Below, in pieces: positions 5,655-25,429 of a stretch of DNA of 26,836 nucleotides. Made by a program: the position numbers and the translations under genes. A model generated the notes under the pieces. It was given only the letters and a program-made list of their open reading frames with translations. It had not been told where the DNA came from and did not search any database. Origin of the DNA: a virus; the UHGV virus genome UHGV-0045954; one strand, written 5' to 3'. How positions within the stretch are numbered: position 1 is the stretch's first letter; each line of letters opens with the position of its first letter.

Positions 5655-7412
5655 TCACAGAATTAACAGGTCCTCATCAGGATCAAGCGTGGACAGAAAG
5701 TCATTCACGCCCCCGCCATTTACCAGAAAGCGGCTCATGGCCGTAAAAAGCGCAACAGGGCCGTCGATTTTGGCTTCAGGCGTGGATTTATTCGGGAAGA
5801 TGTTGTCGTTTTTGTCCGGTTTTACCGTAACGTTAGACATCATCCAGTTCATGACCGGATGATTGCTGTGATGGAAACGCCCGGCATAAACCAGTGATTC
5901 CGTTTCCTTCATGGCCTCTGACAGATTGCGGACCGTCTGCGGAACCTCCACCAGCGGTATCCCTTCTTCAGCCAGTGCCAGGCTGAACTGCATTGCGCTC
6001 CACGGGTCAAATCCCAGTTCCCTGAGGTTTTCACCGCCAATCCATTCCAGTAAGTCACTTTTTATCTGAGCATGATCGATAACATCACCATCCGTCAGGA
6101 TGAGCTTATCCATCTCCGCCCACTTCCGGTAAAGTTCTGCCTGCTGCCGCGAGCATCGCTCCAGCCGTCCTTCCGGAAGCCAGAATTTAAAATCAGCATG
6201 AACATGTCCGTTATCGGTTCGCCAGAGTTTTGCCGCCGCACAGATATCAATCTTATGAGCAAGGTCGACGCCGACCCACATGGGATATGTTTTCAGCTCA
6301 TGTTGTGGAGCAATGTATTCGCACTTCTCCCACTTAATCATATCCATCCAGGCAGATTCGGCAGTGACCCACACATTCATGTGTTTGGTAAAAAAATTCA
6401 CCCGCGCAGAGACCTGCTCCTTCGCTTTTTTCGCCAGACGACGCAGATCATCCCAGCGTTTACAGATGCCCAGGCCAGGATTCGCTTTCTGCCAGACCGT
6501 TTCATCAAACGGATCATCTCCCTCATCGAGCGTGTAAATGATCGCAAAGTAGGAGTCGTCTTTTACCGCGCCCTCCACGTCGCTGTTATAGCCTCGCAAT
6601 ACCTTAATGGCGTAATCGCGCTGCTCGTAGCAAATCCCTTCCTTGTTAAAGCCAGCCGTGGTGATGCCAAATAACAGAGACTGCAGACGGGCACCGGTTG
6701 CCGTTTCCAGAACGTCCCACACGTCACGGGTTTTATGAGCATGCAGCTCATCAATAATGGCGCAGTGGATGTTCAGACCGTCCAGGTTGTTTGCATCCGA
6801 GGAAAGCGGTTCAAATTTTGATGCGCTCTGCTCCTGGTAAATCGCCAGCTTGTTGAAATCAAACAACCGCCCGAGTGTCGACCGGGCTTTTCTGACCATA
6901 TTTTTGGCGTCTTCAAACACAATTCTGGCCTGGTCACGCGTGGTTGCGGCTGAATACACCTCAGCCCCGCATTCACCATCTGCCCCCGTCATATACAGAC
7001 CGATACCCGATGACAGGGTTGATTTTGCGTTTTTACGGGCAACTTCGTTGTATGCTGTCCGGAACCGGCGCACCATCACCGGGCGTCCACTGCCATCGCT
7101 GCGCATGACAACTTCCCCGGTTTCTTCATTCACCAGCGGAATGACAAAACCAAAAATATTAATGAGGATAAACACATGCCAGTCCATCAACTCAATGGGC
7201 TGACCTGCCAGCGCCCCTTTCACATGGGGTACAAATTTGTAGAAATTAAGGATGTGCTGTGCACGGGGTTCACTGAAATAAATCCCCCGCTCTTCGCCGT
7301 ACTTCAGATCATCAAGAAAACGCTGGCAGGCCAGACGGACAAATTCGCCAGCAACAATTTCTCCTGCAACAACACGTTCGGCGTAGCGGATCCCGTCAGC
7401 CACTTTTGCCAT
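5655..7412 (-). CDS. terminase large subunit
   Basis: 585-aa ORF; start overlaps terminase small subunit stop (TGATG); ATPase and nuclease regions typical of terminase. Confidence 0.85.
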   Translation of the reverse strand: MAKVADGIRYAERVVAGEIVAGEFVRLACQRFLDDLKYGEERGIYFSEPRAQHILNFYKFVPHVKGALAGQPIELMDWHVFILINIFGFVIPLVNEETGEVVMRSDGSGRPVMVRRFRTAYNEVARKNAKSTLSSGIGLYMTGADGECGAEVYSAATTRDQARIVFEDAKNMVRKARSTLGRLFDFNKLAIYQEQSASKFEPLSSDANNLDGLNIHCAIIDELHAHKTRDVWDVLETATGARLQSLLFGITTAGFNKEGICYEQRDYAIKVLRGYNSDVEGAVKDDSYFAIIYTLDEGDDPFDETVWQKANPGLGICKRWDDLRRLAKKAKEQVSARVNFFTKHMNVWVTAESAWMDMIKWEKCEYIAPQHELKTYPMWVGVDLAHKIDICAAAKLWRTDNGHVHADFKFWLPEGRLERCSRQQAELYRKWAEMDKLILTDGDVIDHAQIKSDLLEWIGGENLRELGFDPWSAMQFSLALAEEGIPLVEVPQTVRNLSEAMKETESLVYAGRFHHSNHPVMNWMMSNVTVKPDKNDNIFPNKSTPEAKIDGPVALFTAMSRFLVNGGGVNDFLSTLDPDEDLLIL

Positions 7413-8737: not shown

Positions 8738-8917
8738 TCCCCGCTTTATCCAAATTGCATTGCCAGAATGCCGACAACAGACTGACATTCAAATCCTGAC
8801 TACCTCCAATAGGCTGAGCATCCACCTATATAGTTTTAATTTTCATCAATCCATTTAACTATCGTTTAATTGTTGTCACATAGGATTCTGCCGTTTTTAA
8901 CAATGCAGGATAATAAG

Positions 8918-9211
8918 ATGAAAAAAATGTTGTTTTCTGCCGCTCTGGCAATGCTTATTACAGGATGTGCTCAACAGACGTTTACTGTTGGAAACAAACC
9001 GACAGCAGTAACACCAAAGGAAACCATCACCCATCATTTCTTCGTTTCGGGAATTGGACAGGAGAAAACTGTTGATGCAGCCAAAATTTGTGGCGGCGCA
9101 GAAAATGTTGTTAAAACAGAAACCCAGCAAACATTCGTAAATGGATTTCTCGGTTTTATTACTTTAGGCATTTATACTCCACTGGAAGCGCGTGTGTATT
9201 GCTCACAATAA
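8918..9211 (+). CDS. bor: Bor lipoprotein (serum-resistance moron)
   Basis: 97-aa product MKKMLFSAALAMLITGCAQQ... with lipobox LITGC; strongly resembles lambda Bor; opposite strand to lysis genes as in lambda. Confidence 0.85.
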   Translation: MKKMLFSAALAMLITGCAQQTFTVGNKPTAVTPKETITHHFFVSGIGQEKTVDAAKICGGAENVVKTETQQTFVNGFLGFITLGIYTPLEARVYCSQ

Positions 9212-20306: not shown

Positions 20307-20945
20307 ATGAGCAAGCAAACTATATCTGAACGCATAACCCAACGTATGCATGCGCTAAACCTGAAAGGCAAAGACCTTGTCAATGGCACTGGCGCATCAA
20401 AAGGCTCCGTAAGTCAATGGATGAACGGTGGAGGAGCGCCGTCCTCGCGTTACATAAGTTCACTGGCAAAAATATTGAAAGTAAACGAAAATTGGCTTCT
20501 TAATGGAGGAGAGTTAAATACAGGTGATTCGCTTGATCTATCTTTACCGCCGATAAAAACGGTTCCGCTACTATCACTTCAGCAGGCAGCAAGCTGGAGT
20601 GATTATATGAAAAATTCCTCAATAACCTCTTGTGTGCAGCTTGTCGGAGAAATCCCGGTCAATACCTTTGCAGTTGTTCTAGAGAGTGACAGTATGTCAA
20701 CATCTGGTGGGGGAGTTTCCATCCCAAATGGTTCAACAGTTTTTGTTGATCCCGATCGAACCGTACAACCAGGAAATATTGTCCTTGCCTTACCCAAAGG
20801 GACCACAACACCTGTCATTCGTAAACTGGAGATAGAAGGGCCGGATATTCTTTTAGTCCCCACGAATCCTCGCTACCCTTCAATTATGCTGGATGATCTA
20901 TCTTGCATATTGGGCGTATGCTTTAAAATTCAACAAGATATTTAA
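20307..20945 (+). CDS. CI-like repressor (HTH plus S24 LexA-like autopeptidase domain)
   Basis: 212 aa; N-terminal HTH (GTGASKGSVSQWMNG), C-terminal SDSM Ser motif and downstream Lys (VIRKLE); no SD, consistent with a leaderless pRM-type transcript. Confidence 0.8.
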   Translation: MSKQTISERITQRMHALNLKGKDLVNGTGASKGSVSQWMNGGGAPSSRYISSLAKILKVNENWLLNGGELNTGDSLDLSLPPIKTVPLLSLQQAASWSDYMKNSSITSCVQLVGEIPVNTFAVVLESDSMSTSGGGVSIPNGSTVFVDPDRTVQPGNIVLALPKGTTTPVIRKLEIEGPDILLVPTNPRYPSIMLDDLSCILGVCFKIQQDI

Positions 20946-21888: not shown

Positions 21889-22456
21889 TAGATAACCAAC
21901 GAAGCTAAGGTTGGTAATTAAGGAGTTCTCCACGGGTGAGGTGGAGTGCGTGCGCCGGACACGGGTGAGCATCCGGCACTGACAGTTTACTGAAAGGATA
22001 TTTCCCTGAAAAGTCAGACCATAACGCGAAAGCGCACGGCGAGGTAGCTGGTTCATAGATAGCCTGTCGTTAAATTTTCGTCGACCGTGCGCTTCCGGTT
22101 GTGGCAATCCGCGAAATGGCGCGGCGGTAAGTATGGCGGGGTTATTCCTTCCCCCGTTGAGGACACCGGGTTGTCAGGTTGACCATACGCTTAAGTGACA
22201 ACCCCACTGCAACGCCCTCTGTTATCAATTTTCTGGTGACGTTTGGCGGTATCAGTTTTACTCCGTGACTGCTCTGCCGCCCTTTTTAAAGTGAATTTTG
22301 TGATGCGGTGAATGCGGCTAAGCGCACGCGGAACAGTTAAAACCAAAAACAGTGTTATGGGTGGATTCTCTGTATCCGGCGTTAATTGTTAACTGGTTAA
22401 CGTCACCTGGAGGCACCAGGCACCGCATCACAAAACTCATTGTTGAGGGCGCGATA

Positions 22457-22645
22457 ATGAAAACGTTATTACCAAACGTTAATACGTCTGAAGGTTGTTT
22501 TGAAATTGGTGTCACTATCAGTAATCCTGTATTTACTGAAGATGCCATTAACAAAAGAAAACACGAACGGGAGTTATTAAATAAAGTATGCATTGTTTCA
22601 ATGCTGGCCCGTTTACGTCTGATGCCAAAAGGATGTGCACAATGA
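22457..22645 (+). CDS. hypothetical small protein (62 aa)
   Basis: ATG 22457 with GAGGG RBS; stop overlaps next start (ATGA), indicating translational coupling. Confidence 0.45.
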   Translation: MKTLLPNVNTSEGCFEIGVTISNPVFTEDAINKRKHERELLNKVCIVSMLARLRLMPKGCAQ

Positions 22646-22833
22646 ATCCAGTATTTGCACTTATTCTGACGGTTTTTCTTGTTTCCGGAGAGCCAGTTGA
22701 TATTGCAGTCAGTGTTCACAGAACAATGCAGGAATGTATGGCAGCAGCAACCGAACAGAAAATTCCAGGCAACTGTTATCCGGTCGATAAAGTTATTCAC
22801 CAGGATAATAACGAAATCCCGGCAGGATTTTAA
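22642..22833 (+). CDS. hypothetical small protein with N-terminal signal-peptide-like segment (63 aa)
   Basis: ATG 22642 coupled to upstream ORF; MNPVFALILTVFLVSGEP... hydrophobic N-terminus; two Cys in the mature region. Confidence 0.45.
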   Translation: MNPVFALILTVFLVSGEPVDIAVSVHRTMQECMAAATEQKIPGNCYPVDKVIHQDNNEIPAGF

Positions 22834-22926
22834 AACAGCACCGTAATAAATATCCAGTTTCATTCTTATATGTCAGCAATGGCAGAGATTTGTTCACCCT
22901 TAAATCTGTGATGAGGTTTACCAATA

Positions 22927-25368
22927 ATGAGCACTGATAAAGAAGAATTTGCACTATATTGCGAAGCAAAAAATGACAAAGTAAGAAAACGCCTAGGAAT
23001 TAAAGGTGGTTTTTACTGGACTACAGCAAAAAAATTATCTGTTGCAATCTCCCGCTGCATTACCGCAATGGATGACAACGATTATGATGAAGACGACTTT
23101 AAAAAACCCGTCCGCGTCAATTTGCCCGTTGTTGACGACCTTCCGCCAGAAGGCGTGTTTGATACTGAATTCTGCAACCGCTATGAAAAAGGCGGGAAAG
23201 ATGGCATCACAATGACATTTATCGGCCCTTCCCCCTCTGTTCAGGACAAACCAGCCAGCACTGACAATACCAACATCAACGGCGAAGCCATGACTGAGAT
23301 TGAGGAGAGCATGCTTCTGCCTGTCTCCGGTCAGGAACTGCCCATTCGTTGGCTTGCTCAACACGGCAGCGAAAAACCAGTAACGCACGTTTCACGCGAC
23401 GAACTCCAGGCATTACACATTGCACGGGCTGAAGAACTACCGGCTGTTACTGCCCTGGCTATTTCGCATAAAACCAGTCTGCTCGACTCGCTGGAGATTC
23501 GCGACCTCCACAAACTGGTTCGTGACACTGACAAAGTTTTCCCTAATCCTGGTAATTCAGACCTGGGACTAATAACTGCTTTTTTCGAAGCATACCTAGA
23601 CGCTGACTACACTGATCGGGGTCTGCTGACAAAAGAGTGGATGAAAGGAAATCGTGTTTCACGCATCACCCGCACGGCTTCCGGTGCTAATGCTGGCGGT
23701 GGGAACAAAACCGATCGCAATCCGAATTTAGTACACACCCTCGACACACTGGATGTGGAGATTGCAGCAGCCACACTTCCGATGGATTTTAATATTTATG
23801 AAATTCCGGGCAGCGTTTATCGTCGCGCAAAAGAAGTAGTCCTGAACAAAGAAAGTCCGTTCAAAGAATGGTCCGCAGCACTTCGTGCAACCCCGGGTAT
23901 TCTGGACTATTCCCGCGCCGCTATTTTTGCACTTATCCGAAGCGCACACCCTGAATTTTATCACTACCCGGGACGCCTTCAGGGGTATATCAACGCCTAT
24001 TTGACGGAAACTGATCACGAGAACCCCAGCAAGGAAACTCTCACAGCTGCCCGGCATACGCCGGAAAAAGATATCCTGGAAGAAATTAACCGCGAGGTGG
24101 TTACTGAGCGTGAAACAGAAGAAGAAAAACCACAACCATCTGACGCAATGGCAGGTGAACAGGCAACAACTGAAACAATGGAACCGGATACAACTGAACA
24201 TGGCCAGAACGCGCAGTCGCTGGATGCTCAGTCGCAGGTGAGTTCCGCTAACCAAGTAAAAGTCACCGCTGACGAAGTAAACAAAATTATGCAGGCAGCC
24301 AATATCAGCCAGCCTGACGCCGATAAGTTACTTGCTGTATCGCGTGGTGAATTTGTTGAGGGGATTAGCGACCCTAATGATCCGAAATGGGTCAAAGGGA
24401 TCCAGACTCGCGATTCTGTGAACCAGAACCAGCATGAATCGGAACGGAACGACCAAAAAGCGGAACAAAACAGCCCAAATGCGTTACAAAACGAGCCAGA
24501 AACGAAACAATCCGAACCAGTGGCGCAACAGGAAGTGGAAAAAGTCTGCACCGCCTGCGGTCAGACCGGCGGCGGCAACTGCCCTGATTGTGGCGCGGTG
24601 ATGGGCGACGCAACATACCAGGAAACATTCGATGAAGAGTATCAGGTTGAAGTTCAGGAAGATGATCCGGAGGAAATGGAAGGCGCTGAACATCCACACA
24701 AGGAGAACACTGGCGGCAATCAGCATCACGATAGCGATAATGAAACTGGCGAGACGGCAGATCACTCAATTAAGGTGAACGGTCATCAAGAAATCACATC
24801 CACCAGCAGGACGTGTGACCATCTAATGATCGACCTTGAAACCATGGGAAAAAATCCTGATGCCCCGATCATCTCAATAGGTGCAATATTTTTCGATCCG
24901 CAAACCGGAGATATGGGACCGGAATTTAGTAAGACTATCGATCTGGAAACTGCTGGCGGAGTCATTGATCGGGACACCATTAAATGGTGGCTTAAGCAAT
25001 CACGCGAAGCGCAATCTGCCATTATGACCGATGAAATCCCGTTAGATGATGCACTGTTACAATTGCGGGAATTTATCGACGAAAAATCCGGTGAATTTTT
25101 TGTTCAGGTCTGGGGAAATGGAGCCAACTTCGACAACACGATTTTGCGCCGTTCATACGAACGGCAGGGGATCCCCTGCCCGTGGCGTTACTACAACGAT
25201 CGCGATGTACGCACAATCGTTGAGCTGGGGAAAGCCATAGACTTCGATGCCAGAACGGCTATTCCATTCGAAGGTGAGCGCCATAATGCACTTGATGACG
25301 CCCGTTACCAGGCAAAATACGTTTCAGTTATCTGGCAAAAACTGATCCCGAGTCAGGCTGATTTTTAA
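22927..25368 (+). CDS. RecE-like N-terminal region fused to a C-terminal DEDDh (DnaQ-like) 3'-5' exonuclease domain
   Basis: 813 aa. N-terminal two thirds resemble E. coli Rac RecE as recalled ([21 protein letters not shown]..., zinc ribbon [21 protein letters not shown]). C-terminus has Exo I DLET, Exo [10 protein letters not shown], Exo [12 protein letters not shown] motifs. Confidence 0.7.
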
Positions 25369-25429
25369 TGTTCAACCGTCGCCAGTTGTCGTTGATATTC
25401 TGCAACTGGCGCGTTCCGGAGTGATAGCC

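Follow-up and report, generated by a model that had tools for sequence, protein, structure and literature searches.

RecE of the Rac prophage, the exodeoxyribonuclease VIII of E. coli K-12, is made up of a long N-terminal region, which includes an acidic linker and a zinc ribbon, and a C-terminal PD-(D/E)XK 5'-3' nuclease domain (PF12684, aa 615-850). Its gene lies late in the early-left operon, a short distance upstream of xis-int, and is followed by recT, ralR, and rcbA, which fill the space up to xis-int. The DEDDh family of 3'-5' exonucleases includes Mycobacterium tuberculosis Rv2179c, the founding member of Pfam family PF16473; this stand-alone protein of cellular origin has been described as a 3' exoribonuclease. 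Exonuclease A of phage T4 (DexA; 8KEL/8KEN) is a stand-alone DEDDh enzyme of 227 aa from a virulent phage with modified DNA, where it contributes to double-strand-break repair during intron homing and to the scavenging of host DNA for mononucleotides (PMC12153337). An E. coli homologue of DexA, EcD, cuts T4 DNA but not unmodified double-stranded DNA and is protective even at leaky expression (Kang et al. 2025, PMC12153337).

The recombination genes of lambdoid phages have been surveyed by Zheng et al. 2025 (PMC12315714), who describe Chi-rich phages that have no Rec module and are aided by RecBCD, 68 lambdoid phages being without any Rec-module gene. A nuclease-only, annealase-less, Chi-rich class is already tabulated there with Tritos as its prototype; a nuclease is present, annealase, SSB, and anti-RecBCD functions are absent, and Chi counts run from 21/6 to 7/2. 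The same survey finds that the Rec modules of some lambdoid phages, for example epsilon34, combine DnaQ-type nucleases with further canonical recombination genes, and a 3'-5' nuclease alone is therefore not evidence of a role outside recombination.

The gene discussed here lies in a 26,836-nucleotide window of a viral genome (UHGV-0045954), which is the whole stretch of DNA that was analysed. It is a complete open reading frame on the + strand (22927 to 25368) with an ATG start and a product of 813 aa, exactly as the first-pass annotation had placed it. The protein is 100% identical to RefSeq WP_000102135.1, an "exonuclease" of E. coli EC11, and "exonuclease" is also the label given to the gene by PGAP (NCBI). 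Structurally, the gene is a mosaic of a RecE-type N-terminal module of ~400 aa, a zinc-ribbon linker, and a DEDDh exonuclease, all read from the + strand. A small α/β domain (aa 1-100; 22927 to 23226), whose fold is predicted with confidence, is followed in the AF2 model by the helical domains of the N-terminal module (aa 120-398; 23284 to 24120), and a match to PF06630 "Exonuc_VIII", the non-catalytic N-terminal part of RecE, covers aa 57-189 (23095 to 23493; E 1.5e-35). An acidic stretch that is predicted to be disordered (aa 399-443; 24121 to 24255; pLDDT 40-47) leads into the linker module (aa 444-615; 24256 to 24771), which contains a conserved motif, a zinc ribbon, and an acidic tail and is common to RecE, Tritos-type, and window-type proteins. 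The Cys4 zinc ribbon itself (aa 541-561; 24547 to 24609) was recognised by sequence, with the motif CTACGQ at aa 541, and is conserved in Rac RecE. The DEDDh 3'-5' exonuclease domain of the Rv2179c-like/T4 DexA family (aa 632-803; 24820 to 25335) closes the protein and was identified by Pfam, PDB, hhalign, AF2, and Foldseek searches alike.

The N-terminal ~600 aa had been proposed to resemble Rac RecE, and most of that span does. In BLASTP against the K-12 protein, residues 50-591 of Rac RecE align to aa 58-615 with 59% identity, zinc ribbon and acidic linker included, but the first ~57 aa show no alignment and there is none past aa 615. PF06630 also matches K-12 RecE (aa 2-178). The NCBIfam RecE equivalog NF007259 covers only aa 1-615 of the window protein, corresponding to profile positions 1-602 of 877, and its score of 944 bits falls under the curated cutoff of 1269, compared with 1830 for K-12 RecE itself. 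At the DNA level, identity to Rac recE is itself uneven along the gene, at 81-94% over nt 361-810, ~45% over nt 811-1170, and 60-80% over nt 1171-1530, and it drops to ~40% past nt ~1840. The mosaic junction, taken as the end of the megablast piece at about gene nt 1837, lies between 24755 and 24775. When the AF2 model of the N-terminal module was searched against the PDB no fold match was found, and, going by that model, the module is folded but without a known structural relative. Homologues of this module were searched with 50%-cluster representatives, since a query with aa 1-450 otherwise gave only fragments of at least 99% identity. The PF06630-type N-terminal family is found fused to PD-(D/E)XK, DEDDh, or RecT domains, all of which are parts of DNA recombination systems.

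The C-terminal domain is of another type than that of RecE. PF16473 (Rv2179c-like 3'-5' exoribonuclease) matches aa 632-803 with an E-value of 2.6e-67 and a score of 226.4 bits (cutoff 27), over positions 2-177 of the 177 in the profile. E-values such as those of the two Pfam families lie well outside the range of chance matches. The catalytic residues D636, E638, D736, H786, and D791 are all present and vary little or not at all among 54 homologues; they fall within the motifs DLET (aa 636), WGNGANFD (aa 729), and HNALDD (aa 786), which, like the zinc ribbon, were found on inspection of the sequence where they had been reported. The AF2 model of the domain (pLDDT 83.8) has a DnaQ fold, and a Foldseek search with it returned DexA as the best match (5e-12), followed by RNase T, Orn, and REXO2, all with a probability of 1.00. 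DexA was also recovered from the PDB by phmmer (8KEL, E 2e-7) and by hhalign (probability 98.7%). Judged by the predicted model, the C-terminal domain is a DEDDh exonuclease of the RNase H-like DnaQ fold with an intact active site. It shares family, fold, and catalytic residues with DexA, although identity is only ~21-31%, and DexA has extra loops and is without a RecE-like N-terminus. A RecE-type PD-(D/E)XK nuclease is absent, as there is no Pfam match to one and the C-terminal fold is DEDDh. The first-pass annotation had read the C-terminal ~200 aa as DEDDh and the N-terminal ~600 aa as RecE-like; PF16473, PF06630, and the model bear this out. Phage records that name the protein "exodeoxyribonuclease VIII" are mis-annotated.

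A close relative is the 823-aa exonuclease of phages Tritos and mEp460. From gene nt 1331 (~aa 444) to the end, the DNA of the two forms is 93-100% identical, and both sit in the same operon in Chi-rich phages without an annealase. The first ~245 aa of the Tritos protein are unrelated, however, being of a YdfE type with no Pfam match in place of PF06630, and identity in the middle part falls to only 36-40%. In K-12, the Qin prophage retains an IS2-truncated remnant of this Tritos-head form as the pseudogene ydfE (99% identity over 256 aa). The idea that the window gene might be the intact form of Qin ydfE was rejected, as BLASTP shows no similarity between them; it is an intact exonuclease gene from the early-left operon of a lambdoid prophage of the Qin/Tritos type. 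Across 84 related loci examined by tblastn, the linker, zinc ribbon, and DEDDh domain are constant (84/84), while the RecE-type head is a minority form found in 18 and most copies carry the YdfE-type head. The earlier description holds as an account of the architecture, but "RecE with a swapped nuclease" is only one possible reading of the mosaic.

The exonuclease domain is also far from rare. It occurs in 4,048 of 5,426 complete E. coli genomes (75%), in up to 7 copies, and the window-type gene itself is present in about 1,100 complete E. coli genomes. The unusualness implied by the first-pass annotation does not survive these counts, the existing annotations as a (3'-5') exonuclease, and the tabulation of the class (PMC12315714). 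Neither the sequence nor the domain architecture is new, given an identical protein in RefSeq and a domain widespread in E. coli. A literature search on PF16473, or on exodeoxyribonuclease VIII together with dicB, found nothing.

The gene is embedded in a well-conserved neighborhood. Upstream and in the same direction are the small RNA DicF (22231 to 22282; Rfam RF00039, 76.7 bits), the cell-division inhibitor gene dicB (22457 to 22645; PF05358, E 2e-39; PGAP), and, directly before the exonuclease, ydfD (22642 to 22833; DUF1482, PF07358; PGAP). The excisionase gene xis (25430 to 25699; PF07825; PGAP) and a lambda-type integrase gene (25668 to 26786; PF09003 and PF00589) follow directly downstream, as had been described. 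This dicF-dicB-ydfD-exo-xis-int order, which lies on the + strand in the window, is shared with phages Tritos and mEp460 and an O157 prophage; dicB and ydfD lie upstream in 75 of the 84 loci, with xis-int downstream where detectable. The leftward early region is headed by a cI-like repressor gene (helix-turn-helix and S24 peptidase by Pfam; 20307 to 20945, + strand). Immediately 5' of the exonuclease gene, a simple scan for promoters found no promoter-like site on the + strand. From dicF through int, the genes appear to form one leftward transcription unit, in which case the exonuclease would be expected to appear upon induction or infection, a timing that would follow from gene order and the promoter scan. 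An antisense open reading frame at 22318 to 22863 was dismissed on account of its overlap with dicB and ydfD and the lack of any family match. In close relatives, the prophage is inserted between potB and potC.

A tblastn panel of RecT, Bet, Exo, Gam, Erf, Abc1, Abc2, and the RecE C-terminus gave no match anywhere in the window, and the same panel was positive in none of the 84 related loci. The panel is equally negative in the gap between the exonuclease and xis (25369 to 25429), which is only ~60 nt long. PGAP annotation of the whole EC11 prophage lists no annealase, SSB, or anti-RecBCD gene, the absence of SSB being judged by annotation only. The sole recombination-related genes recognised in the window are the DEDDh exonuclease and a RusA Holliday-junction resolvase (14031 to 14411, - strand; PF05866). 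The suggestion that the protein does something other than RecET-style recombination would fit the lack of an annealase in all 84 loci.

Chi sites are plentiful. The window holds 7 on the late-gene strand versus 4 on the other, where fewer than one is expected; the late-gene sites lie at 5948, 9809, 15365, 15422, 19722, 24800, and 26616 on the - strand (~0.5 expected), and the one at 24800 to 24807 (GCTGGTGG) falls within the exonuclease gene. The complete EC11 prophage (42.5 kb) has counts of 8 and 4, and over 56 distinct loci they are 138 and 24, which gives densities of 2.33 and 0.40 per 10 kb. No Chi site was found in lambda and P22 fragments. In the scheme of Zheng et al. 2025, class B is defined in part by at least 4 Chi sites on the top strand, which is that of the late genes, and with an early-left nuclease, no annealase, SSB, or anti-RecBCD gene, and at least 4 such sites, the prophage fits their "Tritos" type in that class, as far as gene content and site counts can place it.

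The reading we tentatively put ahead of the others, while granting that it may well be wrong, is that the exonuclease trims DNA 3' ends in the lytic growth of a phage that depends on host RecBCD and RecA. As the only Rec-module nuclease encoded by a phage without an annealase, an SSB, or a RecBCD inhibitor, the enzyme would remove nucleotides from free 3' ends of DNA. Given what the phage lacks, together with its many correctly oriented Chi sites and RusA, replication would be recombination dependent and run on host RecBCD/RecA; there the exonuclease may shorten or blunt 3' ends, or flaps, similar to T4 DexA in double-strand-break repair during intron homing, with the N-terminal module guiding the enzyme to a substrate or partner. 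There are arguments against this trimming role. The Pfam family bears the name of an exoribonuclease, and the substrate may yet be RNA. RecA needs a 3' tail, which exonucleases of 3'-5' polarity generally destroy. Enzymes of this polarity "usually inhibit homologous recombination" (Zheng et al. 2025, PMC12315714), and the 68 lambdoid phages without a Rec-module gene imply that the Chi/RecBCD strategy can do without a nuclease.

The main rival is a defence role like that of HREX/EcD, in which a prophage defence or superinfection-exclusion nuclease would degrade incoming T-even DNA containing 5-hydroxymethylcytosine (5hmC) and spare unmodified host and prophage DNA. We consider this unlikely. 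In support of it, DexA is both the closest solved structure and the closest characterised relative, EcD (GenBank HAK9828821.1) is likewise an exonuclease of the DexA family that E. coli genomes encode and is reported to act against T4 (PMC12153337), and the domain is widespread in E. coli (75% of genomes, with as many as 7 copies). Escherichia is also the most frequent source of DexA homologues (Kang et al. 2025, PMC12153337), and K-12 strains, in which Qin retains only the truncated ydfE, are reported to have none (PMC12153337). On the other hand, an early-left position downstream of the repressor gene and with no promoter-like site of its own means that a lysogen would be expected not to express the gene. 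EcD is a domain that stands alone, starting with MIDTET and ending with TIPETY, and such termini occur in none of the 120 closest homologues of the window protein, which reach down to 56% identity; EcD falls below that floor, and defence has been ascribed to it and not to the fused prophage form. A blastn search with the primer-derived EcD sequence found no match in complete E. coli genomes; a single match of an EcD 20-mer in viral contigs was rejected as a chance hit with no exonuclease open reading frame. A protein of the HREX/EcD type would be expected to show DexA homology with an intact active site, loss of the tetramer residue D90, and retention of W152 and D169, which are said to give 5hmC recognition (Kang et al. 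2025, PMC12153337). The window protein has the DexA homology and the intact active site, but the recognition residues are not clearly kept, with W152 aligned to Tyr756 in a variable column and D169 outside both the phmmer and hhalign alignments; D90 aligns to A709 (phmmer) or D708 (hhalign). PADLOC models gave no match for the protein, and virulent phages carry a domain of the same kind inside their replication modules, which also argues against defence.

The remaining readings are less probable still. Degradation of host DNA for nucleotides during lytic growth, alongside DicB and YdfD, would mirror the supply of mononucleotides from host DNA by T4 DexA (PMC12153337), and both operon mates, a division inhibitor and a protein annotated in K-12 as a lysis protein, act on the host. 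We regard it as improbable, as the phage's own unmodified DNA would be equally exposed and an exonuclease needs ends, with no endonuclease partner seen. Lambdoid phages are also not known, to our knowledge, to degrade the host chromosome. A little less probable again is an Rv2179c-like exoribonuclease acting on host RNAs or on the phage's own dicF-dicB transcript, for which the name of the best Pfam family ("3'-5' exoribonuclease Rv2179c-like"), the structural neighbors behind DexA (RNase T, oligoribonuclease, and REXO2), and the processed small RNA DicF upstream in the same orientation can be cited; yet the nearest relative by both sequence and structure is a DNA exonuclease, RNase T cuts DNA too, and the N-terminal and linker modules are elsewhere joined to the DNA-recombination domains of RecE and RecT. 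An anti-defence nuclease directed at host immune nucleic acids whose 3' end is free, for instance retron msDNA or the cDNA of reverse-transcriptase defence systems, strikes us as very unlikely. RecE of Rac and Gifsy has been linked to retron msDNA, and the presence of a 3'-5' nuclease among the early genes of a phage is circumstantially suggestive, but no computed result supports this reading and a literature search found nothing. Finally, a canonical RecE-like recombination exonuclease with its annealase elsewhere in the prophage has next to no chance of being correct. The RecE-like N-terminal 615 aa and several phage records that say exodeoxyribonuclease VIII speak for it; the missing PD-(D/E)XK domain, the score under the RecE equivalog cutoff, and the lack of an annealase in the window, the 84 loci, and the PGAP-annotated whole prophage mean that it is refuted at the level of sequence and predicted fold.

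Returning to 3'-end trimming alongside host RecBCD/RecA, the modular construction of the protein allows a broader, speculative proposal that we consider unlikely to be right. Three heads are seen, a 5'-3' PD-(D/E)XK nuclease, a 3'-5' DEDDh nuclease, and RecT. The RecE/YdfE-type module of ~400 aa with its zinc-ribbon linker might be a portable targeting device that delivers such DNA-processing heads interchangeably to one site or host partner, and the DEDDh version would then be the form adapted to annealase-less, Chi-rich phages, preparing or editing DNA 3' ends for host RecBCD-RecA. If so, the "dispensable" N-terminus of RecE would gain a function that is independent of the polarity of resection. 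One of the commonest prophage genes of E. coli encodes a nuclease whose predicted polarity is opposite to what recombination needs, and its function would bear on how lambdoid phages without a Rec module replicate, on whether prophage DexA-like domains defend against T-even phages, and on what full-length RecE contributes in recombineering.

The exonuclease gene (22927-25368, + strand) begins with ATG and encodes a protein of 813 aa, in which the zinc ribbon at aa 541 and the motifs DLET, WGNGANFD, and HNALDD at aa 636, 729, and 786 lie where the first-pass annotation had placed them. The RecE-like character claimed for the N-terminal region, acidic linker and zinc ribbon included, is confirmed by BLASTP, which aligned aa 58-615 with residues 50-591 of K-12 Rac RecE at 59% identity over zinc ribbon and acidic tail and gave no alignment beyond aa 615. 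In Pfam, aa 57-189 match PF06630 "Exonuc_VIII" (E 1.5e-35). Similarity to the NCBIfam RecE equivalog extends over aa 1-615 only, equivalent to profile positions 1-602 of 877, and the score of 944 bits falls below the 1269-bit cutoff (K-12 RecE scores 1830). As the PD-(D/E)XK domain of RecE (PF12684) occupies its aa 615-850, the break in similarity coincides with a domain boundary.

At the C-terminus lies a DEDDh exonuclease domain that belongs to the DexA family. PF16473, "Rv2179c-like 3'-5' exoribonuclease", is matched over its entire profile at aa 632-803 (E 2.6e-67), and the only sequence matches among solved structures are to T4 DexA (8KEL and 8KEN, E 2e-7), with which a 54-sequence family profile aligns at 98.7% probability. 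AlphaFold2 modelled aa 616-813 with a mean pLDDT of 83.8, and a Foldseek search of the PDB with this model ranked DexA first (E 5e-12) and RNase T, oligoribonuclease, and REXO2 next. Five catalytic residues, D636, E638, D736, H786, and D791, vary little or not at all across the 54 sequences. The earlier assignment of this region to the DEDDh exonucleases stands, and by profile searches and structure prediction alike it lacks the RecE/lambda-Exo fold.

A sliding DNA identity profile along the gene, taken against Rac recE and the exonuclease gene of phage Tritos, reveals a mosaic. Identity to recE is 81-94% at gene nt 361-810, about 45% at 811-1170, 60-80% at 1171-1530, and 87-90% at 1621-1800, and is random beyond nt ~1840. 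Against the Tritos gene there is no identity over nt 1-1330, followed by 93-100% from nt 1331 to the end. Most copies lack the RecE-type head. Our comparison covered 84 loci: the window itself, three relatives with annotation, and 80 loci from IMG/VR in which the domain is 96-99% identical; linker and DEDDh domain are present in all 84, and the RecE-type first 265 aa in only 18. The majority form is the 823-aa protein of Tritos and mEp460, whose head has no Pfam match. In K-12 MG1655, the Qin pseudogene ydfE (L004:5079-5999 in our locus set) matches the first 256 aa of the 823-aa protein of phage Tritos (L005:3641-6112) at 99% identity before being cut by IS2E, so that K-12 holds a remnant of the sister gene. 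The acidic-linker segment alone (gene nt 1673-1837) recurs at 88.6% identity in E. coli VTB96816v (NZ_CP178650.1; match H70), where it precedes a gene for a "PD-(D/E)XK nuclease-like domain-containing protein" adjoining a YdaU gene. This arrangement suggests that crossovers recur in the linker DNA and exchange nuclease heads.

The N-terminal family itself is small, contributing 217 of the 50%-identity clusters in a set of 1.84 billion representatives. Of its members of at least 450 aa, roughly 26 end in a RecE nuclease and roughly 14 in a DEDDh domain, two are fused directly to a RecT domain, and the remainder have no recognisable C-terminal domain. The RecT fusions, two of 56 scanned members, combine PF06630 with PF03837 (RecT) and lack a nuclease domain, as in a 703-aa protein (P0244).

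The surroundings of the gene can be read from a closely related 42.5-kb prophage between potB and potC of E. coli EC11, in which the exonuclease gene is 100% identical and indels distinguish the remainder of the window. PGAP annotation shows a cI-like repressor followed by ydfC, dicB, ydfD, the exonuclease, xis, and int, with potC beyond; elsewhere the prophage has genes for head, tail, lysis, Q, RusA, and replication, and no annealase, SSB, or RecBCD inhibitor was found in the 42.5 kb. In the window the DicF sRNA (22231-22282, +; Rfam RF00039, 76.7 bits) is encoded between ydfC and dicB, so that the exonuclease appears to be the large, distal gene in an operon with dicF, dicB, and ydfD that resembles the one in K-12 Qin. 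DicB and YdfD are just upstream of the exonuclease in 75 of the 84 loci. Tritos and mEp460, both functional phages, share the layout of the window, as does an O157 prophage. The reported lack of recT or bet holds well beyond the window, as tblastn with RecT, RalR, Bet, Exo, Gam, Erf, Abc1, Abc2, and the nuclease part of RecE as queries had no match in any of the 84 loci. A 181-aa antisense ORF overlapping dicB and ydfD (22318-22863, -) matches no family and is unlikely to be a real gene.

Besides the exonuclease, the only nuclease- or recombination-type genes of the window are those for the RusA resolvase (14031-14411, -) and an adjoining DUF968 protein with an HNHc-like nuclease motif (14412-15470, -). 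The late and nin regions also contain, all on the - strand, two copies of the STnc100 sRNA (11986-12174 and 12450-12643), a tRNA gene (12997-13069), and a sok antitoxin RNA adjoining hokD (16068-16243). Two moron-like genes run in the opposite direction to the late genes. One (8870-9211, +; PF06291) encodes a serum-resistance lipoprotein of the Bor/Iss type, and the other (11625-11960, +) an IraM-like anti-adaptor, recognised by correspondence with the EC11 annotation.

Chi (GCTGGTGG) is over-represented more than tenfold in the window and skewed to the late-gene strand, with seven sites on the - strand (5948, 9809, 15365, 15422, 19722, 24800, and 26616; expected ~0.5) and four on the + strand (8260, 14780, 14832, and 16723; expected 0.24); one lies inside the exonuclease gene. 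The whole EC11 prophage has 8 on the late-gene strand and 4 on the other. Across 56 distinct related loci (593 kb) there are 138 sites opposite the exonuclease strand and 24 on it, or 2.33 vs 0.40 per 10 kb; no site occurs in the fragments of lambda and P22 examined. Host DNA flanking the EC11 prophage has a similar strand bias (7 vs 1 in 31.8 kb), so this prophage is oriented in line with the Chi skew of the surrounding chromosome. The enrichment fits a Chi-rich class dependent on host recombination. Analysing 325 lambdoid genomes, Zheng, Casjens, Davidson, Amundsen, and Smith (Genome Res 2025, PMC12315714) described 68 enterobacterial phages with no Rec module that are Chi-rich and helped by RecBCD, as well as DnaQ-like 3'-5' nucleases in or near lambdoid Rec modules. 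Tritos is the prototype of a four-phage type with a nuclease and no annealase, SSB, or anti-RecBCD function (their Table 1), with 21/6 to 7/2 Chi on the top/bottom strands; a RecE-like or YdfE-like fusion is absent from their main-text discussion.

The first-pass description was accurate and the occurrence is ordinary: databases and the 2025 literature already contain the gene, its architecture, and the phage class. Of 5,426 complete E. coli genomes, 4,048 have a match covering at least 80% of the DEDDh-coding segment (8,107 places, up to 7 per genome), and 1,091 have the window-type head plus linker. RefSeq names are "exonuclease", "3'-5' exonuclease", and "3'-5' exoribonuclease domain-containing protein"; several phage records use "exodeoxyribonuclease VIII", which RecE equivalog membership does not support. 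As a stand-alone domain it appears in 724 phage records from many hosts, adjoining the integrase in a temperate Yersinia phage and between helicase and primase genes in a virulent Salmonella phage.

Alongside the established architecture, intact active site, fold, operon position, annealase absence, and Chi enrichment, we tentatively propose a mechanism that we rate above its rivals. The exonuclease would be produced on induction and would take nucleotides off DNA 3' ends, with recombination-dependent replication of the phage running on host RecBCD/RecA and its own RusA. The role of T4 DexA in double-strand-break repair offers a precedent for such trimming. Against it, 3'-5' exonucleases normally oppose RecA-dependent recombination, and many Chi-rich phages manage without any nuclease (PMC12315714).

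A defensive role is suggested by the work of Kang et al. (NAR 2025, PMC12153337), who solved the DexA structure and reported that an E. coli homologue, EcD, cuts only 5hmC DNA and protects against T4, a strategy they named HREX. We consider a similar defence here unlikely, as the gene sits in an early operon, 5hmC-recognition residues are not clearly kept, and PADLOC models gave no match to the protein. Scavenging of host DNA is improbable, no host-chromosome degradation being known for lambdoid phages, and activity as an RNA exonuclease is slightly more doubtful still, given that the closest relative acts on DNA. Very little weight can be given to anti-defence, for which neither our analyses nor the literature provided support, and practically none to canonical RecE function, which sequence and fold refute. 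Judged from its sequence, then, this would be a ubiquitous prophage nuclease of the "wrong" polarity, and the interest lies in what it does and in the role of the N-terminal module that it has in common with RecE.
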